41,282 nucleotides of DNA. It comes from a bacterium DOLZORAL124_64_63 (GTDB lineage Bacteria > Krumholzibacteriota > Krumholzibacteriia > LZORAL124-64-63). Where the stretch lies: assembly GCA_002747875.1 (NCBI GenBank), contig PDQT01000216.1:1-41282 (forward strand), written 5' to 3'. Positions within the stretch are counted from its first letter, which is position 1. Each line of letters opens with the position of its first letter. Both the position numbers and the translations under genes were made by a program. Below, one piece after another: positions 12,600 through 37,883 of this stretch. The notes under the pieces were generated by a model, which saw only the letters and a list, made by a program, of their open reading frames with translations, did not search any database and was not told the origin of the DNA.

Positions 12600-12697
12600 G
12601 GGGTTATCCGGTCGTTCTCCAGGGGGAAGATGAAAGGGCTCAGGCGTGGAATCCGGCCCACCGGGAAAAGTTCCTGGCGGGCCGGCCTCCCATGCCG

Positions 12698-19124: not shown

Positions 19125-19268
19125 GACCAGACCTTGCTGTTTTGGCGTTGAATTTGCTAACTTCGATCGCCGGGAACCTCTGTGGGCTGCCGGGGTTTGC
19201 TGCGGTTGGCCCAGGTGGAAACGCTCTTCTCGCGACAGAAAAACCATCGCCTGTCGGCGGTTCCGAAA

Positions 19269-21074
19269 ATGAAATCCACCCATTGTCCAAGGTCAAGGAT
19301 GACGCCTGTGCGCAATTACTTATGGAATATATCAGTTATCTCCCAGCGGGGCATCTGGTGGCTTTGTCTGGGCATGCCTTTTTTCCTCTGGATGGTTTTC
19401 CTGCTTACGGGCTGTGCCGGTCCGGGTTTCCACTGGAGAGGCGAAAAACGCGTTTCCGGTGAATCCGTGCCCGTGGAATTGGCCATGGCGGACAGCCTGA
19501 ACACGGCGGAATCCGACACTCTGGCCGCGGTTTTCGAGACCCTGGATCCTCCGGACACGCAACCAGCCCTGCCCGTGGGGCCCACCGGCTACACGCCGCT
19601 GGAGGATCTGGAGACCCTGTCCCAAGAGTGCCTGCAGCTGCTTTCCCAGCGGGAACCGGCTCTGGCCCTGGATCATCTCTACGTCCTGAACGAAGAACTT
19701 TCCCGCCCCCTGCCCTCGGTGGTGGACAGCCTTTATGAAGCTCATCACCGTAGTCTGCAGCGTCGGGTGTGGTTCATGCAGGGCCTGCAGGCGGAGATGG
19801 TGGCCTTTGCGGAGAACGGCCAGGTGGCCGACTCCCTGCTGGCCACCGGTTATGGCCGGTTGGCCAACGGGGCCTTCCCGGATTCCCTGGTGCCCGCCAC
19901 GGGTGTGACCCTGCCCGCGTTCACGGCGGACCTGCTGAAGGTGGAAAACAGGGCGGTGGAGAGCTGGGTGAACTATTACACGGGCAACGGTCGCCGGCAA
20001 TTCCAGCGCTGGCTGAACAGGAAAGCCAGGTGCGAGGATCTGCTGGTGGGGATCTTGCGCGAGTACGGCCTGCCCGAGGAACTGATCTTCGTGAGCGTCA
20101 TCGAGAGCGGCATCGGCAGCCACGCCGTTTCCAGCGTCGGGGCCGTCGGGCCCTGGCAGTTCATGCCCGAGACGGGCAAGCGCTACCATCTACGGCAAAG
20201 CTGGTGGCTGGATGAACGCCGGGATCTGGAAATGAGCACGCGGGCCGCGGCGCGGCACTTGGCCTATCTGCACGATATGTTCGGGGACTGGGCCCTGGCC
20301 CTGGCGGCCTACAATAGCGGAGAGGGCCGGGTGGCCCACCGCATCCGGATCCATGGGCACGATAATTTCTGGGATATGCGGCTACCTTCGCAGACCACCG
20401 CCTACGTGCCCAAGTTCATCGCGGCGGCCCGTATCGGACGCGACCCGGAAAAATACGGTTTCAAGGTGCCCGAGGTCGAGCCCCTGCGGTACGACGTGGT
20501 CCGGGTGCGCGACGCCACGGATCTGGAATTGATGGCTCGCTGTGCCGGTGTTGAGTCGCAGGTGGTCAAGGAATTGAATCCGGCCCTGCTGCGCGGGGCC
20601 AGCCCTCCCGGCATCCAGGGATACCCCGTGCGCGTGCCGGCCGGTACCGGCGAACGGGCCACCGCCCAACTGAGCAAGGTGCCGTTGGACAAGCGTCTGA
20701 CCTGGCGTCGGCACAAGGTGCGGCGGGGCGAAACTCTGGGCCAGATCGCCCGCCTTTACGGCTCCAGCGTCGGCGACATCGCCCAACTGAACAAGATGAA
20801 GGACGTGCACCTGATCCGGCCCGGGGACCAGCTGCTGATCCCCATGCCCGCCCAACTGGCCGCCGCGGCTCGCAAGCGGGCCAGCGAGAGCGGCCACTAC
20901 ATCCCCCCCGCCGGTTACAAGCGGGTGACCTATAAGGTGAAGAAAGGTGACACGCTGGGCGGCATCGGCCGCAAGCTGGGGGTCAGCGTGCGGCATCTGC
21001 GGAAGGTCAATGGGCTATCCAAGAAGAGTAACCTGATCTACCCCGGGCAGAAGTTGCACGCCTACCGTCCCTGA
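19269..21074 (+). CDS. mltD: Membrane-bound lytic murein transglycosylase D-like lipoprotein (SLT domain plus C-terminal LysM repeats)
   Basis: Lipobox LLTGC. SLT motifs VIESGIGSHAVSSVGAVGPWQFMP...AAYNSGEGRV. LysM repeats HKVRRGETLGQIARLYG...GDQLLIP and YKVKKGDTLGGIGRKLG...GQKLHAY. The start is ambiguous (GTG 19182, ATG 19269 or ATG 19299). Confidence 0.85.
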   Translation: MKSTHCPRSRMTPVRNYLWNISVISQRGIWWLCLGMPFFLWMVFLLTGCAGPGFHWRGEKRVSGESVPVELAMADSLNTAESDTLAAVFETLDPPDTQPALPVGPTGYTPLEDLETLSQECLQLLSQREPALALDHLYVLNEELSRPLPSVVDSLYEAHHRSLQRRVWFMQGLQAEMVAFAENGQVADSLLATGYGRLANGAFPDSLVPATGVTLPAFTADLLKVENRAVESWVNYYTGNGRRQFQRWLNRKARCEDLLVGILREYGLPEELIFVSVIESGIGSHAVSSVGAVGPWQFMPETGKRYHLRQSWWLDERRDLEMSTRAAARHLAYLHDMFGDWALALAAYNSGEGRVAHRIRIHGHDNFWDMRLPSQTTAYVPKFIAAARIGRDPEKYGFKVPEVEPLRYDVVRVRDATDLELMARCAGVESQVVKELNPALLRGASPPGIQGYPVRVPAGTGERATAQLSKVPLDKRLTWRRHKVRRGETLGQIARLYGSSVGDIAQLNKMKDVHLIRPGDQLLIPMPAQLAAAARKRASESGHYIPPAGYKRVTYKVKKGDTLGGIGRKLGVSVRHLRKVNGLSKKSNLIYPGQKLHAYRP

Positions 21075-22319: not shown

Positions 22320-23834
22320 TCAGGAGAAGCCATAGGCTTTGATTTTCCGGTACAGGGTTCGCTCGCTGATCCCCAAGCGCTCGGCCGCCTTGCGGCGGTT
22401 CCCGCCCGAGGCGTTGAGGGCTTCTTCGATGAGGGCCTTTTCCGCCGTTTGCAGGTCCCCGCTCTTCTCATTGTCCAGAGGACTGAAGCCGCTGTCCGCG
22501 GAGAAGGTCTCGTAGATCCGCCCCCCTTGGCCAGGAGGCCAGGGAATGGCCCCGTCAGCCTGCAGATCCCGTTCCTGGAGCAGGGCTTTGACCTCGCGCA
22601 ATTCCTGTTTGATTTCGAGCAAGGTATGGGCCAGAAGGCCGGGGTCGATGGAAGAGGCGCCGGCATTCAGGCCGAAAGGCACAGGCAGATAGGTGTCCGC
22701 CACGGTGTCGGTGTCTGCGTTCAGGGTTGCCGGCAGGTCCTCCACCTCCACCAGACCGCGTTGTTTCATGGCTACGGTGCTGCTGATGGTGTTGCGCAGT
22801 TCCCGCACATTGCCGGGCCAGGAGTGCCGGCGCAGGGTCTGCAGGGCCGATCGGCTGAAGCCGCGCACATGCAGGCCGTGCCGTTTGTTCTCCTCGGCCA
22901 GGAATCGTTCGGCCAGAATGGGGATATCTTCCGGATGATCCCGTAGGCTGGGTGTGTGGATGACCACCACGCGCAGCCGATAGTACAGATCCTGCCGGAA
23001 CTTGCCGACCTTCACCTGCCCGGCCAGATCCTGGTGGGTGGCGGCCACCAGGCGGATATGGCTTTTGATGAGGCCGCGGCCCCCCACCGGGGTGAATTCG
23101 CCCGTCTCCAGAGCGCGCAGGAAACGGGTCTGCATGGACAGGGGCATCTCCCCCACTTCATCCAGGAACAGGGTGCCGCCGTCGGCCCGCTTGAAAACCC
23201 CCTCGTGGTCGGCCACCGCCCCGGTGAAGGCTCCCTTGACGTGGCCGAAGAGTTCGCTTTCCAGCACGCCCTCGCTCATGGCGCCGCAGTTCAGGCTGAT
23301 GAAAGGCGCCGCGCGGCGGGGGCTGTTGTCATGGATGGCCCGGGCCACCAGTTCCTTGCCGGTGCCGCTTTCGCCCAGCACCAGCACGTTGATATCCAGC
23401 GGGGCGGCGTGGGCGATCATGCCCAGCATCTCGGCGATGGAGCGGCTGCGGCCGTAGATCCCGCTGTTCTGTCGCACGTCCCGCAATTGCAGAAGGCGTT
23501 GGACGACCACCTGGATCTCGTCGTGGGGGGTGTCCTCGGGCAGGGCGCGCACGGCCACCGTCCTGCCGGCTTCCGCGGCGAGAGCATCTTCCGGGGATTG
23601 GCCCAGCAGGACCAGATCCGCATCGGTATTCATGGAGAAGAACTTGCGCTCCACGTGGCGGTGCCGGGGATAGTCTCGGGTGTCGAAGAGAAAGACCGAG
23701 GTGTGGCCCTGGGCGATGCGGGCCAGGGCCTCGCTGGGGGCCTCGAACATGAACAGTTCCACTTGGGGCAATTCCCAACGGGAGGCGGAACCCACCAGCC
23801 TCATGTTGCGGCTGAGAATGACAACGGATGGCAC
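22320..23834 (-). CDS. Sigma-54-dependent transcriptional activator (bEBP, AAA+ plus Fis-type HTH) with a degenerate receiver-like N-domain (FleQ/FlrA-like architecture)
   Basis: Walker A GESGTGKE, the sigma-54 contact loop GAFTGA, Walker B LFLDEVGE, QDLYYRL, and the C-terminal HTH NRRKAAERLGISERTLYRKIK. In the N-domain the acidic pair is replaced (VVILSRN) and the KP position is LP. GTG start has an AAGGGG RBS. Confidence 0.9.
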   Translation of the reverse strand: MPSVVILSRNMRLVGSASRWELPQVELFMFEAPSEALARIAQGHTSVFLFDTRDYPRHRHVERKFFSMNTDADLVLLGQSPEDALAAEAGRTVAVRALPEDTPHDEIQVVVQRLLQLRDVRQNSGIYGRSRSIAEMLGMIAHAAPLDINVLVLGESGTGKELVARAIHDNSPRRAAPFISLNCGAMSEGVLESELFGHVKGAFTGAVADHEGVFKRADGGTLFLDEVGEMPLSMQTRFLRALETGEFTPVGGRGLIKSHIRLVAATHQDLAGQVKVGKFRQDLYYRLRVVVIHTPSLRDHPEDIPILAERFLAEENKRHGLHVRGFSRSALQTLRRHSWPGNVRELRNTISSTVAMKQRGLVEVEDLPATLNADTDTVADTYLPVPFGLNAGASSIDPGLLAHTLLEIKQELREVKALLQERDLQADGAIPWPPGQGGRIYETFSADSGFSPLDNEKSGDLQTAEKALIEEALNASGGNRRKAAERLGISERTLYRKIKAYGFS

Positions 23835-24134: not shown

Positions 24135-25040
24135 TCACCGCAGGTCGAGATAGGCGCTGGCCAGTTGCACGGCCTCACGGATCTGGGCCAAGTTGTCTTC
24201 CACCGTACGCACGTCCAGACCGGCGTTGCGGTGCAGGCTCTGCACATCGATCAACCGGGGATCGAAACCCAGGTCGCTGCGCGGGGGGCTCAGAGTGTTG
24301 GCCAGATAGTCCGCCAGGGCCACCAGGGCCACCACCTGCTCCCGGGGATTGGTGGGGGTGCCCAGAACCGGTTCATGGTGCTGCCCGAAGGCCCCGATCA
24401 GGATTTCCGGAAAGCGCCAGCTCTGGCCGAAGGCGGCGCCGATCTGCGCGTGGTTGAAACCGAAGGCCTCTTCTTCCTCCAAGCAAAGACTGCGCCCCGT
24501 ATCTTGGCGGTGGGCGATGACCTGAGCGTACTTCCGGGGCGCGTGGATTTCGAGAATGAACTTGCCCATGTCATGCAGCAGTCCCGCGGAGAAGACTTCC
24601 TCGGGATCGCGATAATCCACCATGGCGGCCAGGTGCTTGGCCACCGCGCCGGTCACCACGGAATGGCGCCACAACTCCCTGTAATCCATGTGCCCCTGGC
24701 TGCGGGAAACGGCGGAAACCACCGTGGTGGCCACGGTGATGCAGATGGCCACCTGCCGGACCGTGCGGTAGCCCAGGACGGCGATGCAGCGGTTGATGTC
24801 GGTCAGGTCGCCCCGGCGGGAATAGTAGGGGGAATTGGCCAGCTTGAGAATCTTGCTCATCAGGGGCGCATCCAGCCGCACCACTTCCGCCAGATCAGTG
24901 GCTCCGCTGTGTGGATCGTCCAGGACTTTGAGAATGGCCATCAGGGTTTCGGGGATCGAGGGCAGATCCTCGATGGTGGACAGCATCTTCTGCAGGTCGG
25001 GATTCTGTGTGGGATCGCTGGTCGTGGCGTGCGTGGGCAT
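24135..25040 (-). CDS. HDOD domain protein (paralogue 1)
   Basis: LPSIPETLMAILKVLDDP...LMSKILKLANSPYY...WRHSV...GLLHDMGKFIL...FGFNHAQIGAAFGQSWRFPE...HHEP. AGGAG RBS. Starts 9 nt after the upstream paralogue. Confidence 0.85.
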   Translation of the reverse strand: MPTHATTSDPTQNPDLQKMLSTIEDLPSIPETLMAILKVLDDPHSGATDLAEVVRLDAPLMSKILKLANSPYYSRRGDLTDINRCIAVLGYRTVRQVAICITVATTVVSAVSRSQGHMDYRELWRHSVVTGAVAKHLAAMVDYRDPEEVFSAGLLHDMGKFILEIHAPRKYAQVIAHRQDTGRSLCLEEEEAFGFNHAQIGAAFGQSWRFPEILIGAFGQHHEPVLGTPTNPREQVVALVALADYLANTLSPPRSDLGFDPRLIDVQSLHRNAGLDVRTVEDNLAQIREAVQLASAYLDLR

Positions 25041-25049
25041 GTTGCGCTC

Positions 25050-25952
25050 CTAAATGAAGATTTCCATCTCATCGGCCAGGGTTTCCTGCAGCAGAGTCGT
25101 GGTTTCGTCGAAGACATCCTGGGTGAAGCCCAGCAGCTGGTTGGCCGGGCAATTCACCAGATCGGTATCGGGCTCATCGATGAAGCCGATCCCCATCTGG
25201 CGGCAGATCTTGTTGGCTAGATCGAGGTAGAGCAGCAGTTGATTGTCCGGGCTCAGGGCCTCGGGATTGTGATGGTTGCGGATAACGTCCTCCAGAGCGG
25301 GGGAAAGTTTCCACTTGTTGATCAGCAACGCCCCCACTTCGGCGTGGGAAAAGCCCAGGGTGCGTTGTTCGGTTTCGTGGAAAGGCAGGCCCTGGTTGTA
25401 AACGGTCTGGACGATTTCATCGAAACGCTCGGGAACGTGCAGATTCAGCACCAGCTTGCCGATGTCGTGCATCAGACCGGCCAGAAAGGCCTCCTCCACC
25501 AGGGCCGGGACCCGCTTCTGGGCCAGGAGGCGGCAGGCGAAACCGGCACCGACGCTGTGTTCCCACAGGAGGCGTTCCTTCAGGCCGCTGCGGCTGTTGC
25601 GCGTGCTGTAGAGATTGCGGGCGGCGCTGGTCACCACCAGGCTACGGATGGAGTTGAAGCCCAGCATGACGATGGCTTCGGTCAGGGTCTTGATCTTCCG
25701 GCTGCAACTGTACATGGCGCTGTTGGCGATTTTCAGGATACGCGCGGTCATGGCCTGGTCATCGGCGATGACCTGCTGCAGCATCTGGGCGGACGTGTTG
25801 GGATCGGACGACAGCTCCAGGACCTTGCTGGCGACTTCGGGCATCGCCGGGAGGTCCCGGGTGGACATAATGATCTTTTGTAGCTGTGTTTGGGTCTGAC
25901 CCGCGTCGGCATTCTCAGGCCGAAGAGGCGGACCCGCCACCGTTGTGCTCAT
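25050..25952 (-). CDS. HDOD domain protein (paralogue 2)
   Basis: LPAMPEVASKVLELSSDP...ARILKIANSAMY...WEHSV...GLMHDIGKLVL...LGFSHAEVGALLINKWKLSP...HHNP. ATG 25952 with an AGGAGA RBS is preferred over the track start at 26000. Confidence 0.85.
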   Translation of the reverse strand: MSTTVAGPPLRPENADAGQTQTQLQKIIMSTRDLPAMPEVASKVLELSSDPNTSAQMLQQVIADDQAMTARILKIANSAMYSCSRKIKTLTEAIVMLGFNSIRSLVVTSAARNLYSTRNSRSGLKERLLWEHSVGAGFACRLLAQKRVPALVEEAFLAGLMHDIGKLVLNLHVPERFDEIVQTVYNQGLPFHETEQRTLGFSHAEVGALLINKWKLSPALEDVIRNHHNPEALSPDNQLLLYLDLANKICRQMGIGFIDEPDTDLVNCPANQLLGFTQDVFDETTTLLQETLADEMEIFI

Positions 25953-26026
25953 CGTCTCTCCTGAGGCGGCGGGCCGTGTTCGGACCGGAGTCCGGGCCAC
26001 CGACTATTGTCCTGTACGGCCTCTGG

Positions 26027-26498: not shown

Positions 26499-26840
26499 TC
26501 ATGCTCGCATATCGATCAGGCTGCCCAGATCCTCGTCTTCTTCAGCGGTTTTGGGGTCATTTTCGGAATCGGTGGTGAAACGTCCAGCCGGTCGGCGCTG
26601 CTGCAGCTTCCGGCGCCGCCGCCGCCGGCGTTCCCGGCGTCGGTCCTCGTCGGGATCGATTTTGCTGTCCGCGGTCTTCTCCGTTTCCTTGACCCGCTGG
26701 GTCTTCAGGGACTCGTCCTTGGACTGTTGCTCCTGAAACCCGGTGGCGGGCTGCGTCGCCTGCTGGGCGCGGGCCTGGGTCTTGGCCACAGTCCCCATCT
26801 GGGCCAGCTGGGTGGGCATGGAAACACCGTCGCCTGCCAC
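26499..26840 (-). CDS. Hypothetical highly charged, probably disordered protein (113 aa) with an RRRERRRRRRRK tract
   Basis: GTG 26840 is preceded by GGAAAGGAAAAG. Codon third positions are mostly G/C. It sits 53 nt after fliA and 25 nt before the next ORF. I recognise no family. Confidence 0.5.
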   Translation of the reverse strand: MAGDGVSMPTQLAQMGTVAKTQARAQQATQPATGFQEQQSKDESLKTQRVKETEKTADSKIDPDEDRRRERRRRRRRKLQQRRPAGRFTTDSENDPKTAEEDEDLGSLIDMRA

Positions 26841-26893
26841 GTTCTTTTCCTTTCCCTAGGCCGCGCGGGCGGCTCTTCCGATCATCATCCGGC

Positions 26894-27856
26894 TCAGGCG
26901 CCGGGCCACTGGCCGGTGGCGGCCAGGTAGCCCAGATAGCTGCAGATCTGGAAGATGGAGAACGCGGCCATGATGTTGACCGGTTCCAGCTTCTCTTCTT
27001 CCACGGCGCAGACCGTCCGGGGATGGGCTGGAGATTTCTTCTGCTTGTTCTGGATGCGCTTGGTGATCTGGCCGATGCTGCTTTTGCCCTCATGGCGCTG
27101 GATCTTGCCCTTGAGACGCAAGATGGCCTTGGTGTGGATCTGGCAGACGCGGCTTTCGGTCACGTCCAGGATCTCGCCGATTTCCTTGAGGGTCAGCTCC
27201 TCGTAGTAGTACAGGACCAGAACCAGCTGCTCCTTATCCGGCAGTTCGTTCATGCGCTGGCCGATGAGTTCCTTCATCTCCTGTTGGGCCAGCACCTGCT
27301 CCACATCTTCGGTGCGGGGGTCGGCCAGAAGTTCTCCCAGGCTACTGCCCTGTTCGCTGTCATCGCTGCGGTTGTCCGCGTCCAGGGACATGATCGTGGC
27401 GATGCTCACCTCTCCCACCAGACCGTCCAGATCCTGCACGTCGATCCCCAGGTGGTCGGCCACCTCCGCGTCGGTGGCGTGGCGCCCCAACTGGCCTTCC
27501 AGGTGGCTGTAGGCCTCCTCCAGTTGCTTGGCCTTGCGGCGCAGGCTACGGGGGAACCAGTCCTGGCTGCGCAGCTCGTCCAGGATGGAGCCCCGGATAC
27601 GCGGGATGGCGTAGGTTTCGAACTTGATGCCCCGGTCGGGATCGAAATTGTCGATGGCCTGGATCAATCCCAGCAGACCGGCACTGATCAGATCGTTGAA
27701 TTCCACGTAATGGGGAAGGCCTATGGCCATGCGACCGGCCACGTATTTGACGATCCGGGCATAGATATCGACCAGTTCCTGCCGGGATTCCTCACGCCTG
27801 CTGCCCTGCAGGTTCTCCCAGACCTCTTGATGGGCAATGAGTGTGCTTTCCGCCAT
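26894..27856 (-). CDS. fliA: Flagellar sigma factor FliA (sigma-28 / WhiG family) with a ~68-aa C-terminal extension
   Basis: Region 2: DLISAGLLGLIQAIDNFDPDRGIKFETYAIPRIRGSILDELR. Region 4: LVLVLYYYEELTLKEIGEILDVTESRVCQIHTKAILRLK. ATG 27856 (GAAAGG RBS) is preferred over the track's TTG 27886. Confidence 0.9.
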   Translation of the reverse strand: MAESTLIAHQEVWENLQGSRREESRQELVDIYARIVKYVAGRMAIGLPHYVEFNDLISAGLLGLIQAIDNFDPDRGIKFETYAIPRIRGSILDELRSQDWFPRSLRRKAKQLEEAYSHLEGQLGRHATDAEVADHLGIDVQDLDGLVGEVSIATIMSLDADNRSDDSEQGSSLGELLADPRTEDVEQVLAQQEMKELIGQRMNELPDKEQLVLVLYYYEELTLKEIGEILDVTESRVCQIHTKAILRLKGKIQRHEGKSSIGQITKRIQNKQKKSPAHPRTVCAVEEEKLEPVNIMAAFSIFQICSYLGYLAATGQWPGA

Positions 27857-27895
27857 TGTACGGCCTTTCTGAAGGTTGGTTGACAACCTGGTATA

Positions 27896-27946: not shown

Positions 27947-28186
27947 TCATGTTTCCGTCTTGACGGTCTCTGCGGACTTGTCGGCTTCATTGGCCGGAGC
28001 TTCGGTCTGCTCGAAATACGGGATGATCATCATCAGCATGGCCAGCACAGCCCCCAGGAAGAAAAAGCCCAGGTAGCTGAGCACGACCCGCTTAAGGGTG
28101 CTGAGCAGCCCCCAATCCTGCCAGATCCCGGCCCCCAGGGTGATGACGGCTGCCAGCAAGGCGATGGTGTTGACGATCCTCTGCAT
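27947..28186 (-). CDS. Hypothetical small membrane protein (79 aa, two predicted TM helices) in the position normally held by flhG
   Basis: Its ATG is 3 nt after the flhF TAG (TAG-AAG-ATG). Predicted TM segments are IALLAAVITLGAGIW and LGFFFLGAVLAMLMMII. I recognise no family. Confidence 0.6.
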   Translation of the reverse strand: MQRIVNTIALLAAVITLGAGIWQDWGLLSTLKRVVLSYLGFFFLGAVLAMLMMIIPYFEQTEAPANEADKSAETVKTET

Positions 28187-28189
28187 CTT

Positions 28190-29329
28190 CTAGCCTTCTT
28201 CGCGCGCCTGCTGTTCCCGGTAGCTGTTTCCCAGGGGCTGTCCCAGGATGAAGTCCAGCAGGGCGCCGCTCGCGGCGATCTCCAGATTCCCGTCCCAACC
28301 CACCAGGCTCAGGGGCAGCGGGATGCGGTCCACGTATTCCAGAACCTTGCCGGGGCGGCGGGTGGCCTCCAACCCCGTCAGGGCCAGCCAATCGCAATTC
28401 CAGTTCCGCGCCGCTTCGGACAGGACATCCATGTCGGCCGGGTCGTAAAAGGACGGCACAACCATGTGACGATGGAAGGTGGTGTTCCCGCTCAGCCAGC
28501 TGTGCAGGATCCGTCCCGGGTCCATCTGCGGATGCCCCACGGGGGGCATGTCCACCAGCACCACTTCATATTTGCTCAGGTGCTTCTCGCTGCGGGTCAG
28601 TTGCTGAGGCTTCTGGATGATGGCCGCGTCGAAACCCAGCCGGGCAGCCTCCACCTGTAACTGCTTGACCCTGCCGTGGTGGGGCGGCATGACGCTCAGC
28701 ACCAGGGTGCGGCGGCCCATTTTCCGGAGCCGGGCGGCGGCGTTGAGGATCAGCTCGAAGGAGTCCGCGGAACGGGGTCCCAGGAAGGCGTGGCAGCCGT
28801 AAAAGCCGTCCCATTCGCAGTTGCTGGCCTTCAGGTTCTCCGCCAGCCAGACCAGGGCACCGGCCCGGTTGTCCGGACGCTGGCCGGTTTCGCTCAGGAA
28901 GCGCGTCAGAAGTTTCTGGACGGTGTGCTCGCTGGTGCCCGCGTCCAGGAAGCTCTGGGCCAGGGGGTTGTTCGCCAGCATGCCGCCGATGCCGTCCCGC
29001 CGGGTGAACTCTTCGGCGATCTCCGCCACCAGGTTTTCGATACGCGCCACTTCGGTCAGGAGCTGGTCGGCCGTCAGGGAGGAATCCCGCCCAGGAACCG
29101 TGGAGTTAATGGCCCGCGGGCTCATGGCGCCCGGTGCCTGGACGGTGACCTCCACGAACTTCTCGTGGCCCAACCCGTGAGGCTGCCGCCGGGTGACGGT
29201 GCGGCTGCCCAGGATCACGGCATCCTCCCCGTAGGTCTGCTTGACCAGCTTGTAGGCCCCTTTGAGGGTTGGGGCGGTGACCACCGGGTTTTGATCAGCC
29301 GGCGGCCTGTTTCTGTTGCGCGAATCCAT
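28190..29329 (-). CDS. flhF: FlhF-like flagellar biosynthesis protein with degenerate SRP-type GTPase motifs
   Basis: The N-terminal B-domain block LKGAYKLVKQTYGEDAVILGSRTV is typical of FlhF. The NG domain is collinear with B. subtilis FlhF, but G1 reads GPRSADSFEL, G3 reads DMPPVG and G4 reads TGLEAT. It sits directly after flhA. The start is uncertain because it overlaps flhA by 35 nt. Confidence 0.75.
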   Translation of the reverse strand: MDSRNRNRPPADQNPVVTAPTLKGAYKLVKQTYGEDAVILGSRTVTRRQPHGLGHEKFVEVTVQAPGAMSPRAINSTVPGRDSSLTADQLLTEVARIENLVAEIAEEFTRRDGIGGMLANNPLAQSFLDAGTSEHTVQKLLTRFLSETGQRPDNRAGALVWLAENLKASNCEWDGFYGCHAFLGPRSADSFELILNAAARLRKMGRRTLVLSVMPPHHGRVKQLQVEAARLGFDAAIIQKPQQLTRSEKHLSKYEVVLVDMPPVGHPQMDPGRILHSWLSGNTTFHRHMVVPSFYDPADMDVLSEAARNWNCDWLALTGLEATRRPGKVLEYVDRIPLPLSLVGWDGNLEIAASGALLDFILGQPLGNSYREQQAREEG

Positions 29330-31409
29330 GGGTCACCACCGTTCCAGCCGACTGGACGCTCACCGTGGGAGAAACCTCGGTGTAGCCCATGACGGCCAAG
29401 TTGGGGTAGGTCGGCTCGATGAGTTGCTTGACGAAAAGACGGATGGGCGTGGGCACCAGCAGCACGGGCGGCGGCCCGCTGGAATAGGCGGTCCGCAGAA
29501 CCCCCTCCATGTTGCCCAGGAAGGCGCGGGTGAAGGCCGGGTCCAGGACCACGCCGCCGGCGCGATCGCTTTCCCGCCCGGCCTGCAGCAGGGTCTGCTC
29601 CACCTCCGGGTGCAGGCTGATGGCATGCAGGCGGTTCTCGCCGTCGGCGAAGAGGGCGGTGATGCTGCGCCCCAGGGCCTCGCGCACCTTGCCCGTCAGG
29701 TAGTCGTTCCCCAGGCCGCTGCCCGTGTGGTTGGCCAGGGTTTCCAGGATGGTGATGATGTCCTTCACCGGAATGCGTTCGTGCAGCAGGTTCATCAATA
29801 CGTTGTGCAGAGTGTTGACGGGCACCTTGTCGGGAATCAGATCCTCCACCAGGGCGGGCGCGTACTCGCGGATGGACTCGCACATGTCTTTGACGTCCTG
29901 GCGGCTGAGCAACTCGTCACTGTGGCTGCGGATCAGTTCGCTCAGGTGGGTGGCCAGGACGGCCGCGGGTTCCACGACGGTGAAACCTTCCACCTCGGCC
30001 TCGGCCTTCTTCTCCGGATCGATCCACAGGGCCGGCAGGTTGAAGGCCGGTTCGGTGGTCGCCGTGCCCTCGATGTGGCCCGTGTCCGGACGGGTGCTCA
30101 TGGCCAGCAGACGGTTGGGGAAAAGCTCGCTGCGGGCGATCTCCACGCCCTTGAGTTTGATCACGTAGTTGTGGGCGCCAAGCTGCAGGTTGTCCCGCAC
30201 CCGGATGGGGTGGATGAAGATGCCCAGCTCGCTGCCCACCTGGCGCCGGATGTTGCTGATCCGCGTCAAGAGGTCGCCGCCGCGCTTGCCGTCCACCAAG
30301 GGGATCAGACCGTAGCCGATCTCCAGTTCCATCCGGTCCAGGATGAACAGCTCCTCGCCGCGCAGGCCCTGGGGCTCTTCCTCCTCCTGGGTGGCTTGGG
30401 CCTCCGCTTCGGCGGCGCGGGCCTCGTTGTCATCGTACTGCTCGACGCGGTTGCCCATGATGAAGCCGGCGCCGGCGGTCGCCGCGGCGAAGACCAGGAA
30501 GGGGATGGTGGGCAACCCGGGGATCATGGCGAAGATGGTCATGGCGCCCGATGCCAGGTACAGGGCCTTGCGCTGCCGGAAGATCTGCAGGGTCAGGGTC
30601 TGGCCCAGGTTCAGGCTGCTGCTGCTGCGGGTCACCACCAGGCCCGCGGCGGTGCTGACCAGCAGGGACGGGATCTGGCTGACCAGGCCATCGCCCACGG
30701 TCAGCACGGTGAAGCGGCTGAGGGCTTCGCCTGCGGGCATGCCCATCTGCACCATGCCGATGATGAAGCCGGCCGCGATGTTGACCACGGTGATCAGGAT
30801 GCCGGCGATGGCGTCGCCCTTGACGAATTTGCTGGCACCGTCCATGGCGCCGAAGAATTCCGCTTCCTGGGCGATTTCGGCACGGCGGGCCTTGGCCTGG
30901 GCTTCGTTGATGAGCCCGGCGTTCAGGTCCGCGTCGATGGCCATCTGCTTGCCGGGCATGGCGTCCAGGGTGAAGCGGGCCGCCACCTCGGCGATGCGCC
31001 CGCTGCCCTTGGTGATGACCATGAAGTTGATGATCACCAGGATGATGAAGACGATGACGCCGATCAGGTAGTTCCCGCCGACAACAAAATCCCCAAAGCT
31101 GTCAATTACCTGACCGGCGGTGCCCGTGCTGAGGATCAGGCGCGTGCTGGCCACGTTCAAGGACAGCCGGGTCAACGTCAAAATCAGAAGCAGGCTGGGA
31201 AAGCTGTTGAAGTGCAGGGGCTCTTTCAGGTAAAGCGATACCAGAAGGACAGTTATGGAGAAACTGATGCTGAAGGTGAGCATCAGATCCAGCAGGGCCG
31301 GCGGCACCGGAATCACCAGCAGGCCCAGGATGACCATCACAGCCACCGCGCTCAGCACGTTGCTGTTGGCCAGAACCAGATCCCTGTCGATGACGTTTTC
31401 TTGTGCCAA
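29295..31409 (-). CDS. flhA: Flagellar export apparatus protein FlhA
   Basis: 704 aa with FHIPEP-family blocks (GRIAEVAARFTLDAMPGKQMAIDADL..., FVKGDAIAG). TTG start with a GGAGAGGG RBS. Confidence 0.97.
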   Translation of the reverse strand: MAQENVIDRDLVLANSNVLSAVAVMVILGLLVIPVPPALLDLMLTFSISFSITVLLVSLYLKEPLHFNSFPSLLLILTLTRLSLNVASTRLILSTGTAGQVIDSFGDFVVGGNYLIGVIVFIILVIINFMVITKGSGRIAEVAARFTLDAMPGKQMAIDADLNAGLINEAQAKARRAEIAQEAEFFGAMDGASKFVKGDAIAGILITVVNIAAGFIIGMVQMGMPAGEALSRFTVLTVGDGLVSQIPSLLVSTAAGLVVTRSSSSLNLGQTLTLQIFRQRKALYLASGAMTIFAMIPGLPTIPFLVFAAATAGAGFIMGNRVEQYDDNEARAAEAEAQATQEEEEPQGLRGEELFILDRMELEIGYGLIPLVDGKRGGDLLTRISNIRRQVGSELGIFIHPIRVRDNLQLGAHNYVIKLKGVEIARSELFPNRLLAMSTRPDTGHIEGTATTEPAFNLPALWIDPEKKAEAEVEGFTVVEPAAVLATHLSELIRSHSDELLSRQDVKDMCESIREYAPALVEDLIPDKVPVNTLHNVLMNLLHERIPVKDIITILETLANHTGSGLGNDYLTGKVREALGRSITALFADGENRLHAISLHPEVEQTLLQAGRESDRAGGVVLDPAFTRAFLGNMEGVLRTAYSSGPPPVLLVPTPIRLFVKQLIEPTYPNLAVMGYTEVSPTVSVQSAGTVVTHGFAQQKQAAG

Positions 31410-31430: not shown

Positions 31431-32492
31431 TCAGCTCTTTTTCAGGCGATAGATGTAGGCCAGGACCTCGGCCACGGCCTGGAACAGGGATTCGGGAATC
31501 CACTGCCCCACCTCGACCTGCCGATACAAGGAGCGTGCCAGCGGTTTGTTCTCGATGATGGGAACCCGGCTCTTGCGGGCGATCTTCTTGATGGTCTGGG
31601 CCAGATTGTCCTGCCCCTTGGCCACCACCATGGGTGCCGGCTGACCCGCCACATACTTCAGGGCCACGGCAAAGTGAGTCGGGTTGGTGATGACGACATC
31701 GGCGGTGGGCACATCGGCCAGCATGCGCTTGCGGGCCATCTCGAACTGCTGGCTCTTGATCCTGGCCTTGATCTGCGGATCACCCTCCACGTCCTTGTTC
31801 TCCTGCTTGATCTCCTGCTTGCTCATCTTGATTTCTTCTTCGTGCCGATGCTTGGTCCAGAACCAGTCGATGATCGCCAGCAGAGAGGTGAAGGCCAGCA
31901 GGACGGCCATCAGCTTGATGAAGCTCATCTTGCCGATGCTGATGATGGCCTGCAGGGGCAGCAGGCAGAGGCTGTTGAGATCCGCCACCAAGTGTCGGAG
32001 CACGCCCCAGGCCAGAAGACAGATAATTGTGACTTTTATAATGTTCTTTATGAGATTAACATACATGTCTTTCTTGAAGTATTTTTTGAATCCGCTGAGG
32101 GGGTTCAGCTTCTCCAGTTTGAACTGCAGGGATTCGGGCGTGAACTTGAACCCTACCTGCAGGATGTTGGCCCCGATCCCGGAGACGAAGACCCCGGCCA
32201 GCAGGGGAGCCAGCGCCGTCAACAGGGTGCCGATGTTGAAGCGCAGGATGCCCTGCAGGGCGTATTCGTTGGTGGTGTTCAGGATGTGGCCCTGGCTGAA
32301 GATGTAGGCGGCGTGCCGCCCCAGCACCCGGGCGAAATGGCCGGAGGACATGACCAGGATGGTCATGCCCACGATCAGCAGAATGGCCCCGTTGACTTCC
32401 TCGGATTTGGCCACCTGGCCCTGTTTGCGCGCGTCTTCCCGCCGTTTACCTGTCGCTTTTTCTGTTTTCTCGCCCGCGGAGTCGTCGGCCAT
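31431..32492 (-). CDS. flhB: Flagellar export apparatus protein FlhB
   Basis: 353 aa. N-terminus is EKTEKATGKRREDARKQGQVAKS, and the NPTH autocleavage site lies in VVITNPTHFAVAL. GAGGAGG RBS. Confidence 0.97.
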   Translation of the reverse strand: MADDSAGEKTEKATGKRREDARKQGQVAKSEEVNGAILLIVGMTILVMSSGHFARVLGRHAAYIFSQGHILNTTNEYALQGILRFNIGTLLTALAPLLAGVFVSGIGANILQVGFKFTPESLQFKLEKLNPLSGFKKYFKKDMYVNLIKNIIKVTIICLLAWGVLRHLVADLNSLCLLPLQAIISIGKMSFIKLMAVLLAFTSLLAIIDWFWTKHRHEEEIKMSKQEIKQENKDVEGDPQIKARIKSQQFEMARKRMLADVPTADVVITNPTHFAVALKYVAGQPAPMVVAKGQDNLAQTIKKIARKSRVPIIENKPLARSLYRQVEVGQWIPESLFQAVAEVLAYIYRLKKS

Positions 32493-32526: not shown

Positions 32527-33312
32527 TCAACTCAGGGCCACCAGAACCCGGCTCAGCTGGTCGGGCAGCCCGTTCATCAGGTTGACGGCCACCTGTCGGA
32601 AGAAGACCAGAGACACGCCGAAGGTGATCAGCCCCACGGCGATCTTGACGGGGAAGCCCACGGCCAGGACGTTGATCTGGGGTACGGTCTTGACGATGAC
32701 CCCCATGGAGGCGCTGACCAGCAGCAACACCACCACCACCGGCGAGGCGATGCGCAACCCCAGTTCGAAGACGGTTCCGAATTCCTTCAGCAGGAACCAG
32801 GAACCGGCGGCGGGATCCAGAGGCGCGAAGGGCGGAACCATGACACAGCACTGGAACATGATCTGGACCAGGGTCTGGTGGGCCCCGGTGACGAAGAACA
32901 GCAGCACCGCCAGGATGTAGTACAGCTGGGAGATGATGGAGACCTGGCTCTGGGTCATGGGATCGAAGGCGTTCACGATGGCGAAGCCGATCTGCATGCC
33001 GGCCACGGATCCGGCGTATTTCACGGCCGTGAAAATCAGATTCACCGTGAAACCCAGCAGGGTCCCGATGACCAGGCTGCGAACGGCTTCCAGGACCAGC
33101 CCCGGCCAGCTCAGGTCCAGCGTGCCGGCCGGGATGGCCGCCACCACCGCCGGTGTCAGGATGGACGCGAAACAGATGGCCAGGGCCACCCGCCACAGGG
33201 CCGGCACGCTGCGCAGATCCAACAGGGGCAGCGTGGCCGCCAGCACCCCGAAGCGCACCGCCAAGGCCCCTCCCACGGCCAGCAAGCCCATGTCCAGCTG
33301 GAAGAGCATCAC
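32527..33312 (-). CDS. fliR: Flagellar export apparatus protein FliR
   Basis: 261-aa polytopic membrane protein between fliQ and flhB. Its start overlaps the fliQ stop. Confidence 0.9.
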   Translation of the reverse strand: MMLFQLDMGLLAVGGALAVRFGVLAATLPLLDLRSVPALWRVALAICFASILTPAVVAAIPAGTLDLSWPGLVLEAVRSLVIGTLLGFTVNLIFTAVKYAGSVAGMQIGFAIVNAFDPMTQSQVSIISQLYYILAVLLFFVTGAHQTLVQIMFQCCVMVPPFAPLDPAAGSWFLLKEFGTVFELGLRIASPVVVVLLLVSASMGVIVKTVPQINVLAVGFPVKIAVGLITFGVSLVFFRQVAVNLMNGLPDQLSRVLVALS

Positions 33313-33572
33313 ATGGCCGCGATGCGGTTGAACATCTCGGTGGCGAAGCCCGTCAGCTGGCTGATGGCCCAGGGCAGGGTCAGGATCAGGATGGCGAAGA
33401 CGGTCAGGATCTTGGGCACGAAGGTCATCGTCATCTCGTTGATCTGGGTGGCGGCCTGGAAAATGGAGATGGTCAGACCGACCAGCATGCCGCCGAGCAG
33501 CATGGGGCCGGCCACGAAGATCACCGTGCGCATGGCGTACTGACCGATTTCGATGACGGCTTCGGGAGTCAT
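33309..33572 (-). CDS. fliQ: Flagellar export apparatus protein FliQ
   Basis: 87 aa, including AGPMLLGGMLVGLTISIFQAATQINEMTMTFVPKI. Confidence 0.93.
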   Translation of the reverse strand: MTPEAVIEIGQYAMRTVIFVAGPMLLGGMLVGLTISIFQAATQINEMTMTFVPKILTVFAILILTLPWAISQLTGFATEMFNRIAAM

Positions 33573-33582
33573 GAATCCACCT

Positions 33583-34386
33583 TTACTGGAAGGCCTGGAC
33601 CAGGGAGCGGACCACCAGGAACCACCCGTCGACCAGGACGAAAAGCAACAACTTGAAGGGCAGACTGATCAGCACCGGCGGCAGCATCATCATGCCCATG
33701 GACATCAGCACCGAGGCGACCACCATGTCGATGATCAGGAAGGGGATGAAAAGCAGGAAACCCATCTGGAAGGCTGTTTTGAGCTCGCTGAGCACGAAAC
33801 CGGGGATGACCACCAGCATGGGCAGCTCCTGGGGCGTGTCGGGTGTTTCGGTGTTGGTCAGTTCCAGGAACAGGGCGATGTCCTTTTCCCGGACCTGGCT
33901 GAGCATGAAGTCTTTCAGAGGCCCCTGAGCCCGGCTGAAGGCCACCTCCTGGCTGATCTCGTCATTCATGAAGGGCTGCAGGGCGTCGGTATTTATCTCG
34001 CTGAGCACCGGGGACATGACCACGATGGTCAGGAAGAGGGACAGCCCGATGATGATCTGGTTGTTGGGGGCGGAATTGGCGCCGATGGCCTGACGCAGGA
34101 AGCCCAGCACGATGACGATACGGGTGAAGCTGGTCAGCAGGATCAGGAAGGCCGGCGCCAGCGAGAGCACCGTCATCAGCAGCACGACCTTCAGAGCGGC
34201 GTCCATGCCGCCGGGCGATTGCACCCCTTGCAGGCTGAGGCTGATGGCCGGAGCGCTGGTGGAGTCGCCGGCGGCGGTCCGGGCGATGGTCTGGGCGGCC
34301 ACGGGACCAGCCCCCAGGACGGACAGCCCCACCAGAACGGTCAGGATCAGGATCAGGCGCGGGGCTGTGGCGGGCACGGTCGGCAT
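33583..34386 (-). CDS. fliP: Flagellar export apparatus protein FliP
   Basis: ATG 34386 gives a signal peptide (MPTVPATAPRLILILTVLVGLSVLGAGPVAAQ) and FliP blocks (LLTSFTRIVIVLGFLRQAIG, PFKLLLFVLVDGW). The track's GTG 34446 would overlap the sigma-54 promoter motif. Confidence 0.93.
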   Translation of the reverse strand: MPTVPATAPRLILILTVLVGLSVLGAGPVAAQTIARTAAGDSTSAPAISLSLQGVQSPGGMDAALKVVLLMTVLSLAPAFLILLTSFTRIVIVLGFLRQAIGANSAPNNQIIIGLSLFLTIVVMSPVLSEINTDALQPFMNDEISQEVAFSRAQGPLKDFMLSQVREKDIALFLELTNTETPDTPQELPMLVVIPGFVLSELKTAFQMGFLLFIPFLIIDMVVASVLMSMGMMMLPPVLISLPFKLLLFVLVDGWFLVVRSLVQAFQ

Positions 34387-34430
34387 GGGACTCTCTTGCG
34401 GGCTGAAGGGAATAGTCTCTCTTCCCCTGG

Positions 34431-34445
34431 GCAATGGGCGTGCCA
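34431..34445 (-). promoter_or_regulatory. Sigma-54 (-24/-12) promoter candidate upstream of fliP: TGGCACGCCCATTGC
   Basis: The minus strand reads ggggTGGCACGCCCATTGCCcagg, an exact match to TGGCACG-N4-TTGC. It is 45-59 nt upstream of the fliP ATG. Confidence 0.7.
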
Positions 34446-34526
34446 CCCCAACCTGCCGTCGACCTCTTTTATCTTGTTGAAAAAAATGATGTTATGGAGC
34501 CGGCGACCGGTATTTCCGGATATGGA

Positions 34527-34590: not shown

Positions 34591-35001
34591 TCAGGAGACG
34601 GGACCGACCTTCTGGAAGGGCAGCTTGCCGCCCAGCAGATCCCGCAGCCCCTGGCCCGTGGGCCGGGCGGGTTCTCCGTTGCCGTGGGCCCGCTCGAATT
34701 GGGCCAGGCTTTCTTCCTTGAGGATGACCATGGATCCGTCATGGCGGTAGATATAGTGGACCCTGTCTCCCAGACGCAGAATCTGGATTTCCCGCTTCGG
34801 TCCCAGATGCCACACGGCCAGCAGGCCGGTGTTTCCGGAGGCCGTCCCGCCATGGAGCTTCTTGAGCAGCTTGAGGAACAGCAGCAGCAGCCCGAAGACG
34901 ATGGCCAGCCCCCCCACGGTCTGCCACCAGGAGCCTTGGGCGCCGAAGGTCTCGGCCGGCAGGGGGATGGCCGCTTGCGCCAGGAAGAAACCCGGCATCA
35001 C
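34591..35001 (-). CDS. fliO: Flagellar biosynthesis protein FliO (FliZ)
   Basis: 136 aa with a single TM (VGGLAIVFGLLLLFLKLL) followed by LAVWHLGPKREIQILRLGDRV. It lies between fliN and fliP. ATGA overlap with fliN. Confidence 0.8.
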   Translation of the reverse strand: MMPGFFLAQAAIPLPAETFGAQGSWWQTVGGLAIVFGLLLLFLKLLKKLHGGTASGNTGLLAVWHLGPKREIQILRLGDRVHYIYRHDGSMVILKEESLAQFERAHGNGEPARPTGQGLRDLLGGKLPFQKVGPVS

Positions 35002-35375
35002 AGCACCCTCTTGAGGCGTTCCACACGGTTCAGCAGCTTGGTGATGCGCACGGCGAAGTGATCATCCACCACCACCACTTCGCCGCTGGCCAGCAGGGCG
35101 CCGTTGACCAGGATGTCCACCGGCTCGGAAACCTGTCGGGAAAGCTCCACCACGCTGCCGTTGCTCAGGTTCAGCACGTCGCGGAACTTCAGGCGGGTGC
35201 GCCCCAGCTCCACCGTGATCTGCAGCCCCACATCCAGCAGCAGGTCCAGGTTGGCCGTATCCGGCACCTGTTCTCCGAGATCGGACAGGAGGGACGCCGA
35301 TTCCTCATCGCCCACGGGATTGTCCGCCGTGGCCAGGGTTCCGCCGGTCGCGTTCATTTTGATCTCGTCGGTCAT
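34998..35375 (-). CDS. fliN: Flagellar motor switch protein FliN
   Basis: C-terminal SpoA domain: LDVGLQITVELGRTRLKFRDVLNLSNGSVVELSRQVSEPVDILVNGALLASGEVVVVDDHFAVRI. Confidence 0.93.
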   Translation of the reverse strand: MTDEIKMNATGGTLATADNPVGDEESASLLSDLGEQVPDTANLDLLLDVGLQITVELGRTRLKFRDVLNLSNGSVVELSRQVSEPVDILVNGALLASGEVVVVDDHFAVRITKLLNRVERLKRVL

Positions 35376-35378
35376 GCT

Positions 35379-36410
35379 TCACTCCTTGTCCAGTTGCTGG
35401 ATCAGCTTGACGGCCCGATTCTGGCCGATGCGACCCGCTTCTGCCAGCCAGCTGGGTTGGCCCTCGATCTCCACCAACAGGGGAGCATCCATTCCCTGCG
35501 GCAGATGGATGATATCGCCCACCGCCATGTCCATGACGTCCTGCAGGGTGCAGCTCTTGGATGCCAGGTTGACGGTGACTTCGGTGGGGGTGCCCTGGAT
35601 CATGTCCAGGATGCGCCGCCGGTCGTCCTTCTTCTCGGTGGGGGTGCGCATCTCGACCGCCTCCTGGGGGTCGAAGATGTCCCGCACCGGATCGAAGGCC
35701 GACAGCGGGAAGCCCATTTCCATGATCCCCTCCACCGTATCCAGCTTGACCATGAATTTCAGGATGATCAGGGCGGTGCCGTCGGCCAGGCCGGAAAGGT
35801 AGTTGGGGTTGTTTTCCAGGTTCACGAAATCGGGCGTCACGTCCACCCACTTCTGGGCGGCCTTGCGGAAGATATCCATGAAACGGCCCACCAGGCCGGC
35901 GTTGATGCCGCGCTCTATCTCCGTGAATTCCCGCACGTTGTCTTCGGGGTCGACCATGCCGCCCATGAGCTTCTTGAGGAAGAGGAAGCTCAGCCCCAGG
36001 TCGATATGCACCAGGACATACCCCTTGAGGGGCGCCAGGGTGACCAAGGCGGCGCAGGTGGGGTTGGGCAGCTCTTCCATGTATTCCAGGTAGGTGCTCT
36101 GGCGCAGGCCCTGGAAGTCCACGGTGGTGGTCATGCGGAAGAGATTCGTGAAGTCGATGGTGCCGGTTTTGGCGTAGGCCTCCCCCACGGCATTCAGGTT
36201 CTGCTCGAAGTTCCGGTTGATGCTGTTGGGACGATGGAAATCGTACCGGCGCTGCTCGCCGGACAGGAGGTCCTCGTCGGCGGAATCGGCGTTCAGGACC
36301 TGGTCCAGATCCAGACCGTCGGCGCCGCCCACCAGATCCTCGGCCACGTCCAGGGCGGCGTCCAGATCCAGATCGTCCATGTTCCGGCTGTTCTTGTCGT
36401 CAGGTGACAC
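35379..36410 (-). CDS. fliM: Flagellar motor switch protein FliM
   Basis: 343 aa. Contains YDFHRPNSINRNFEQNLNAV..., a middle domain and a C-terminal SpoA-like region. GTG start with a GGAGG RBS. Confidence 0.93.
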   Translation of the reverse strand: MSPDDKNSRNMDDLDLDAALDVAEDLVGGADGLDLDQVLNADSADEDLLSGEQRRYDFHRPNSINRNFEQNLNAVGEAYAKTGTIDFTNLFRMTTTVDFQGLRQSTYLEYMEELPNPTCAALVTLAPLKGYVLVHIDLGLSFLFLKKLMGGMVDPEDNVREFTEIERGINAGLVGRFMDIFRKAAQKWVDVTPDFVNLENNPNYLSGLADGTALIILKFMVKLDTVEGIMEMGFPLSAFDPVRDIFDPQEAVEMRTPTEKKDDRRRILDMIQGTPTEVTVNLASKSCTLQDVMDMAVGDIIHLPQGMDAPLLVEIEGQPSWLAEAGRIGQNRAVKLIQQLDKE

Positions 36411-36428
36411 GAATGAGCCTCCGCTGCC

Positions 36429-36947
36429 CTACTGAACCACGAGATCCGAGAAATAGACGTTCATCAGGGTGCCTTCGGGCATCTTCTCGTCCAGGCGACG
36501 GAAGATTTCGTCACGCAGCCCCTTCTTGCCTTCGGGGGTGGATATCTGGGCGGCCGTCTTGTCCGAAAGCGTCATGATCACCAGATCCCGCAGCTGCGGC
36601 AACCGGGTGGCCACCACGTCGGCCACTATCTGGTTGGGAACCTCCACATTGATGTTGATGCGCAGGTACCGGGGCTGGGACGGGTTGGACACCAGGGTGA
36701 CGACGATGTCCTCCAGATTGACCAGAACCCCCATCTCGGGCATTTCCGGTTCCGCCACTTCCGTCTGGGCTGCGGCTTCCATGCCCGCGTTCTGCACGCC
36801 CAGCTTGGGAAGGATCAAAAACTGGGTCAGGCCGATGGCCAATCCCACCTGGACCACCACGATGATCCCCAGCAGGATGGCCTTGTTCTCGAAGATTCCG
36901 CCCTTCTTTTCCTCGGCGTTCTCCAGGGTTTCGTCGTTGTCCGCCAT
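36429..36947 (-). CDS. fliL: Flagellar basal-body-associated protein FliL
   Basis: 172 aa with an N-terminal TM and then PRYLRININVEV...LRDEIFRRL...VYFSDLVVQ. GAAGGAG RBS. Confidence 0.88.
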   Translation of the reverse strand: MADNDETLENAEEKKGGIFENKAILLGIIVVVQVGLAIGLTQFLILPKLGVQNAGMEAAAQTEVAEPEMPEMGVLVNLEDIVVTLVSNPSQPRYLRININVEVPNQIVADVVATRLPQLRDLVIMTLSDKTAAQISTPEGKKGLRDEIFRRLDEKMPEGTLMNVYFSDLVVQ

Positions 36948-36963
36948 GAATCCGCTCTCCTTC

Positions 36964-37812: not shown

Positions 37813-37883
37813 GGCGGGTCCTCCCGGCGCCACCCCTTGGGGGCCATGACCGGCAGGTCAGGCCGAATCCCGCCGGCGCGGGA

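Follow-up and report, generated by a model that had tools for sequence, protein, structure and literature searches.

A probable pseudo-GTPase orthologue of FlhF in the flagellar operon of a Krumholzibacteriota bacterium

Location of the flhF-like gene

The window analyzed here is the 41,282-nucleotide (nt) stretch at positions 1–41,282 of contig PDQT01000216.1 of bacterium DOLZORAL124_64_63 (Krumholzibacteriota), in which an flhF-like gene, a likely FlhF orthologue without nucleotide motifs, lies between flhA and fliA in a long minus-strand flagellar operon. The gene (28190–29329, minus strand, as are all features within it) encodes 379 amino acids (aa) from an ATG start, and the third-position GC content of the open reading frame (ORF), 0.86, is similar to that of the adjoining genes. 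Its start overlaps the end of flhA (29295–31409, minus strand; Pfam FHIPEP, 858 bits) by 35 nt, a comparable overlap being found in relatives, and 3 nt separate its stop codon from the next ORF, which encodes a 79-aa protein with two transmembrane (TM) helices (27947–28186, minus strand; no Pfam family). With fliA (sigma-28; 26894–27886, minus strand; TIGR02479, 271 bits) following, the order in the window is flhB-flhA-flhF-like-small TM ORF-fliA.

Loss of the nucleotide motifs

Motifs were placed from two alignments, one of the family profile with Bacillus subtilis FlhF (PDB 2PX0) and one made with MAFFT that included 44 canonical FlhF sequences, and were tabulated across 75 and 203 sequences. 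Both alignments put GPRSADSF (residues 184–191; 28757–28780) at the G1/P-loop, where canonical FlhF has GPTGVGKTTT. G2, canonically DTYR, is replaced by MPPHHGR (residues 214–220; 28670–28690), with the family-invariant P215 standing for the Thr, and G3, canonically DTAGR, by VDMPPVG (residues 259–265; 28535–28555), with the family-invariant P262 standing for the Ala. At G4 the canonical TKLDE has become LTGLEAT (residues 317–323; 28361–28381), for which deeper relatives have [ST]RxD and a middle clade TRxE, and the GQxVPED loop aligns with GWDGNLEI (residues 344–351; 28277–28300). All five replacements had been claimed in a preliminary description made from the sequence alone, and they sit exactly as it stated; neither alignment places an intact GxxGxGK[ST] or DxxG in the protein. 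Judged by these motifs, the protein is predicted not to bind nucleotide.

A six-frame scan of positions 28100–29400 found no G..G.GK[ST], DTYR, D[TS].G[RK] or [TN]K.D, and two assemblies made independently, P0001 (ENA) and P0002 (6 contigs from JGI, Logan and ENA), have the same degenerate loop, GPRS[AS]DSF. A frameshift or assembly error, which the preliminary description had asked to be checked, is excluded by the negative scan together with the agreement of these assemblies.

Homology to FlhF and domain architecture

The protein falls short of the curated FlhF thresholds: NCBIfam TIGR03499 (FlhF) reaches 57.4 bits (cutoff 174.15) and matches residues 17–185 only, which make up the B and N domains, and Pfam SRP54 (PF00448, the G domain) reaches 14.5 bits (cutoff 22.7). 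Because phmmer with the single protein returned no match in the PDB, a family profile was needed to establish homology there. With a profile of 75 members the best matches were FlhF of B. subtilis (2PX0, E = 1.7e-5) and of Shewanella putrefaciens (8R9R, 7.5e-4), followed by Ffh, and a profile of residues 13–66 matched the crystal structure of the FliG-interaction domain (FID) of FlhF (9EN1, E = 3.5e-5). An AlphaFold2 model computed from the 75-sequence alignment had a mean predicted local distance difference test (pLDDT) score of 88.4, with 92–98 in the G domain. The top Foldseek matches of this model in the PDB were all signal recognition particle (SRP)-type NG domains (Ffh, FtsY and FlhF), with 1RJ9_B at 9e-13 and the FlhF structures 8R9R at 5.9e-12 (TMt 0.74) and 2PX3 at 7e-11. 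The earlier claim of collinearity with FlhF, including the N-terminal block and the NG spacing, is borne out by the matches to 9EN1, 2PX0 and 8R9R and by the confidently modeled SRP-type NG fold.

Ratios of nonsynonymous to synonymous substitution (dN/dS) were calculated by the Nei-Gojobori method in the three pairwise comparisons among the window gene and its two closest relatives, L030 and L031 (84–85% amino acid identity). The FlhF architecture of FID, linker, N domain and G fold is kept. The FID-like domain (residues 16–64; 29138–29284), which contains the GEDAVILGSRTV block, is a beta-alpha-beta-beta unit (pLDDT 85–95; dN/dS 0.03–0.13) whose profile matches 9EN1; the FID core AxTLxEAxxxVKxxxGxDAVIL is common to canonical FlhF and the window protein. 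It is joined by a disordered linker of variable length in the alignments (residues 67–86; 29072–29131; pLDDT <50; dN/dS 0.7–1.3) to the N domain, a helical bundle (residues 87–167; 28829–29071; modeled helices 87–165; dN/dS 0.13–0.23) that lies within the TIGR03499 coverage. The remainder (residues 168–362; 28244–28828; dN/dS 0.06–0.09) has the alternating beta/alpha fold of a G domain and holds none of the nucleotide motifs.

Selection on the gene and newly conserved residues

For the whole flhF-like gene, dN/dS was 0.13–0.20, and for its G domain 0.06–0.09. These G-domain values are close to those of flhA (0.09) and fliA (0.07–0.13), and thus the G domain, though stripped of its motifs, is under constraint as tight as that on the neighboring genes. 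Within the window clade the P-loop region itself gave 0.08–0.21, and family members are full-length down to 40% identity. The dN/dS values rule out a pseudogene; the erosion of the motifs is real, the gene is under purifying selection and it is not decaying. That it might be a relic on its way to becoming a pseudogene, or else a sequencing or assembly artefact, draws some force from its rate of change, since the flhF-like proteins share 40–60% identity where the FlhA proteins of the same loci share 73–85%. More than 150 sequences, reaching as low as about 25% identity, nevertheless have the ORF complete and uninterrupted, and the low G-domain dN/dS, the newly invariant residues described next, the lack of the motifs in any other frame and the agreement of the assemblies leave this explanation next to no probability; as far as sequence evidence goes, it is refuted.

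Residues particular to the family were identified by setting 75 of its members against 44 canonical FlhF sequences and taking positions conserved in at least 93% of the family and rare or absent in canonical FlhF. Just before beta-1 lies a family-specific motif, SNCEWDGFYGCHAF (28784–28825), that holds a three-residue insertion, G178-C179-H180; G178 and H180 are invariant in groups A–D of the related sequences, and 98% of canonical FlhF has a gap there. Groups A and B share an invariant W173. The strand formed by residues 285–292 begins with an invariant FHRH (28466–28477), of which F285, H286 and R287 are new and H288 is also present in canonical FlhF, and a conserved WNCDW (28388–28402), with W310, D313 and W314 invariant, precedes the strand leading to the former G4. 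Further positions constrained in the family and not canonical are P215, Q225, D234, P262, D296 and K328, with R96 and E98 in the N domain. These new invariant residues speak for a change of function and against decay. The strand order expected for the fold would put H180, H286, H288 and D313 where neighboring central strands have their N-terminal ends, on the other side from the former nucleotide pocket.

Distribution and probable stepwise loss

A search of a 5.8-billion-protein index returned 77 close relatives without Pfam SRP54 annotation, of which 72 were full-length at 40–85% identity; a profile search of the same index with groups C and D returned almost nothing. When 1.84 billion representatives were searched exhaustively by profile, 72 clusters came out at E ≤ 1e-30, with scores running continuously down to canonical FlhF. 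Scanning of GTDB species genomes gave 25 loci, most of them in named Krumholzibacteriota metagenome-assembled genomes and the others labeled "bacterium" or "uncultured bacterium", or Fibrobacteraceae or Gemmatimonadales (3 cases), and a metagenome scan for group C2 gave 3 loci. The NCBI-named members of groups B, C and D are also Krumholzibacteriota, and all Krumholzibacteriota-labeled FlhF-like proteins found fall in the divergent clade. Most family members were found to have no Pfam SRP54 match; where NCBI names them, it uses "hypothetical protein", and JGI gives the name FlhF to most of those it labels. Because of these gaps in Pfam and NCBI annotation, surveys based on annotation would score many such genomes as lacking flhF.

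A 203-sequence neighbor-joining tree, with canonical FlhF as the root, arranges the motifs as a ladder. Canonical FlhF, the first step, has the P-loop GPTGVGKTTT with DTYR, DTAGR and TKLDE. Groups D and C have GxxGxGK[ST] (GR[ST] in a few D members), PxHxGE, D[TLM]P and [ST][KRQ]xD, and group B has GxxGxGK[ST], LPRHGGE, DTPxL, HRH, WNCDW and TRLD. In the derived clade the P-loop Lys has become Arg (GxxGxGR[ST]); the middle clade has GxGQT or GxGT with TRxE; and the window clade, the last step, has GPRSADSF with TGLEAT. DTYR and DTAGR are gone in every Krumholzibacteriota lineage, the basal ones of which keep GxxGxGK[ST]. At least two other clades (P0292/P0104/P0293/P0291/P0294/P0091 and P0082/P0295/P0087) have lost the P-loop independently; there it reads, for example, GEYGGEGL, EHETDRL or YSRPQRQ, and some members have also lost the G4 Asp. 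Such independent erasures indicate that the pocket became repeatedly dispensable after the Lys-to-Arg change. From the tree and motifs, loss of G2 and G3 appears to be old and phylum-wide, and that of the P-loop more recent and in stages (K to R to none), the last of them seen in the window clade.

The same series bears on whether the protein might use non-canonical residues to bind nucleotide, or some other phosphate ligand, and still act as a switch, perhaps one that is permanently "on" and binds without hydrolyzing. GxxGxGK[ST] and [ST][KR]xD persist in basal relatives, and GxxGxGR[ST] in many derived ones, so the pocket was long under some constraint; dN/dS in the P-loop region of the window clade is still low. 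The window protein itself, however, has no Gly-rich loop, no Lys/Arg-Ser/Thr, no Walker-B-type DxxG and no specificity Asp (GPRSADSF, DMPP and TGLE stand in these places), and the independent erasures elsewhere argue for a dispensable pocket. We regard retained binding as improbable.

Absence of flhG from the locus

No MinD/ParA gene was found in the 41-kb window, either by tblastn with genuine FlhG or by Pfam scans of its coding ORFs (all but a few short ones). The comparison was extended to 36 related loci (L001, L002 and L005–L038; groups A, B, C2 and D), with flanks of up to 10 kb on each side for most loci, 6 kb for L035–L037 and less at contig ends. Krumholzibacteriota metagenome-assembled genomes account for nearly all of these loci whose records carry a taxon name. 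As far as the contigs extend, these loci share a core of flhA, the flhF-like gene and a small ORF, and in every one that includes flhA the flhF-like gene directly follows it. This is the slot of flhF in the canonical outgroup locus L003 (FlhF P0080, 25% identity), which has the order flhA, flhF, flhG, a 103-aa two-TM ORF and fliA and whose 293-aa FlhG has ParA, CbiA and MipZ Pfam matches. With the L003 FlhG as query, tblastn detected no flhG in the flanks of any of the 36 related loci (0/36), and the precomputed Pfam annotation of neighboring genes in L001, L002 and L030–L034 contains no ParA, MinD or CbiA domain. The FlhF of all 36 lacks G2 and G3, and thus the pairing of motif loss with absence of flhG that had been proposed for the window holds at the level of the locus. 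On the question, raised there, of whether motif loss tracks flhG loss among relatives, the loss of G2 and G3 appears ancient and, like that of flhG from the locus, phylum-wide; the P-loop was probably lost later and in steps. In the basal group C2 loci L035–L037, fliA went undetected downstream of the flhF-like gene and small ORF, and an HDOD gene lies within about 1–2 kb, a layout unlike that of the window class.

In the genomes analyzed for a recent review, flhG is "consistently" directly downstream of flhF, and the Gln of the FlhG DQAxxLR helix is described as a co-catalytic element of the FlhF dimer (PMC12826062). Because FlhG supplies this Gln to the dimer, joint loss of the activator and of the elements on which it acts is coherent. 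The supplementary KEGG orthology (KO) table of a 2024 mBio paper on Krumholzibacteriota covers flagellar genes and does not include the flhF and flhG KOs, and is thus uninformative on flhG.

The flanks also frame a second alternative, that the gene is a paralogue with a new role and that a true FlhF-FlhG pair is encoded elsewhere in the genome. The view of each locus, at most 10 kb to either side, leaves room for such a pair. Set against it are the gene's place at every locus, in the orthologous slot that directly follows flhA within the main fliPQR-flhBA operon, the retention of FID, N and G domains alike, the placement of every Krumholzibacteriota-labeled FlhF-like protein found in the divergent clade, and the reported proximity of flhG to flhF (PMC12826062). 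Together these make a paralogue very improbable.

The downstream two-TM protein

The space in which flhG would be expected is occupied by the 79-aa two-TM ORF. Across related loci the ORF following the flhF-like gene is 67–110 aa long; of the 30 related loci whose sequence continues beyond the flhF-like gene, 28 gave a tblastn match to the two-TM protein (E ≤ 1e-2; 40–84% identity), and an ORF of the same size occupies this position in L034, L036 and L038. It consists of two TM helices and a charged tail (27947–28186 in the window; 11187–11435 in L001), and its gene has a dN/dS of 0.21–0.26. In L003 the 103-aa ORF between flhG and fliA (7763–8074) has the same topology, homology between the two being weakly supported (hhalign probability 16%, E = 0.0016).

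A role for the two-TM protein as a replacement for FlhG was considered and rejected, because an ORF of the same topology is already downstream of flhG in L003; the two-TM gene was probably present in that position before flhG was lost. FipA (DUF2802), which helps to localize FlhF in gamma-proteobacteria, offers an analogy only: it too is a small membrane protein encoded beside flhF and possibly acting with FlhF (PMC11620751), but the 79-aa protein has no match to DUF2802 or any other Pfam family, and its identification as FipA was rejected for this reason. The two-TM protein is a candidate membrane partner of the flhF-like protein.

Other genes of the window

Upstream of flhA, the minus-strand operon contains flgE (39000–41012), motA, motB, fliL, fliM and fliN (34998–38666), fliP, fliQ and fliR (32527–34446) and flhB (31431–32492), with a 156-aa ORF at the fliO position between fliN and fliP (34591–35061, minus strand; no Pfam match). 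In the long-contig assemblies L002/L021 and L032 (contig_58231 and contig_20491), many flagellar genes (fliP, fliR, flhB and flgE) are fragmented in a manner resembling indel errors; the flhF-like ORF is intact in both. Directly after fliA is a 118-aa ORF (26499–26855, minus strand; no Pfam match), which was found, at 38–72% identity, in 31 of the 33 loci with a fliA.

Beyond it lie two tandem HDOD genes (24135–26000), a sigma-54 activator (22320–23834), an SLT/LysM gene encoding a transglycosylase (19182–21074, plus strand) and a GGDEF gene encoding a cyclase (17630–19054). This order downstream of fliA is syntenic in L001, L002, L030–L033 and much of the phylum; the HDOD pair is missing in L034, and no receiver domain was found in the window copy of the sigma-54 activator. 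The synteny suggests control of flagellation by cyclic di-GMP and sigma-54, which might have taken over the role of FlhG in setting flagellar number. The remaining window genes are of the housekeeping kind (trmFO/gidA-like, topA, secA, purH, purC and comEC). A 1087-aa protein encoded at 9756–13019 (minus strand), with an M6 (immune inhibitor A-like) peptidase domain and a C-terminal FlgD-Ig-like domain, is unrelated to the flhF-like gene.

Interpretation and comparison with known systems

Taken together, slot, domain order, fold and selection make it likely that this gene is orthologous to flhF by position and by structure, turned pseudo-GTPase under selection. In a history that would fit the ladder, the ancestor of Krumholzibacteriota would have lost flhG together with G2 (DTYR) and G3 (DTAGR), which contribute to the composite catalytic site of the SRP-type dimer that is the target of FlhG. 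The P-loop Lys, no longer held in place by a hydrolysis cycle, may then have become Arg in one class, and the P-loop and the G4 Asp would later have been erased in the window lineage and, independently, in at least two others.

Whether the product is a constitutive, nucleotide-independent adaptor we put at about an even chance. The FID is necessary and sufficient for FliG binding in S. putrefaciens, where the NG domain binds HubP (PMC11236974). As in Shewanella, the FID of such an adaptor would recruit FliG and, through it, FliF and the C-ring, and the rigid NG-like module would provide a surface for localization or tethering (docking). On/off control may have moved from GTP and FlhG to another partner or to the level of expression, the latter because the flhF-like gene is translationally coupled to flhA. 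Flagellar placement in Krumholzibacteriota would then probably proceed without the usual nucleotide switch.

Several points weigh against an FlhF orthologue acting as a nucleotide-independent adaptor. In Pseudomonas aeruginosa, GTP binding regulates the FlhF-FliG interaction (PMC12713375), and so a nucleotide-free FlhF cannot be taken to bind FliG. The window showed no landmark protein (HubP/FimV or FipA/DUF2802). The view on flhG and on any second canonical flhF covered flanks of at most 10 kb, the order of events is read from a tree without support values, and the organisms are uncultured.

An unlikely variant of the history, though one to which we give some weight, is that the GTP/FlhG switch was replaced by another built from the newly invariant residues (G178-C179-H180, C171, W173, H286, R287, H288, W310, C312, D313 and W314). 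Strand topology predicts that these gather where the three central strands have their N-terminal ends, facing away from the old nucleotide pocket. The predicted new site could bind a metal, a redox-active or a small-molecule ligand, or could dock the two-TM protein. If such a switch exists, flagellar placement in Krumholzibacteriota would need neither nucleotide nor FlhG.

The window protein resembles canonical FlhF (B. subtilis 2PX0 and 2PX3; S. putrefaciens 8R9R for NG and 9EN1 for the FID) in its position after flhA, its FID-linker-N-G order and its SRP-type NG fold. It differs in that G1–G5 are all replaced, a G-C-H insertion precedes beta-1, Trp, His and Pro residues are newly invariant, scores fall under the TIGR03499 and PF00448 cutoffs and no flhG lies downstream. 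Bacillus cereus FlhF also works without FlhG, no homologue of which was found there, but its GTP motifs are intact and its function needs a GTP-dependent homodimer (PMC7218170), whereas the motifs of the window protein are gone. The basal FlhF-like proteins of groups B, C and D (for example P0084, P0124 and P0142) share with it the clade, the loss of DTYR and DTAGR, the invariant G-x-H insertion and the flhG-less context; unlike the window protein, which has neither, they keep GxxGxGK[ST] and [ST][KR]xD and may still bind nucleotide. In engineered GTP-binding and GTPase mutants of FlhF (Vibrio, Pseudomonas and Campylobacter), some functions are retained to a variable extent although the GTP cycle is no longer normal. 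Those mutants carry single laboratory substitutions and usually have abnormal flagellation, in contrast to the natural, selected and complete loss in the window, accompanied by compensatory new conserved residues.

FlhF and FlhG have been described as a conserved, always co-encoded molecular switch for flagellar position and number (PMC12826062). Full-text literature searches returned no description of a natural motif-less FlhF. To our knowledge, no pseudo-GTPase has been described in the SRP GTPase family, of which the window protein would be the first natural one. The phylum appears to have dropped FlhG, at least directly downstream of flhF, then the catalytic site of FlhF and then the nucleotide pocket, all under strong selection, and its orthologues are missed by the curated FlhF models. 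This is not a categorically new system; it is relevant to flagellar placement and to pseudoenzymes. The graded series from GKT through GR[ST] and GQT/GT to none offers ready intermediates for the biochemistry of an enzyme becoming a scaffold, and the lineage as a whole is a natural experiment on the question of which functions of FlhF truly need the GTP cycle, those surviving its loss being, on the adaptor interpretation, FliG recruitment by the FID and tethering by the NG fold.

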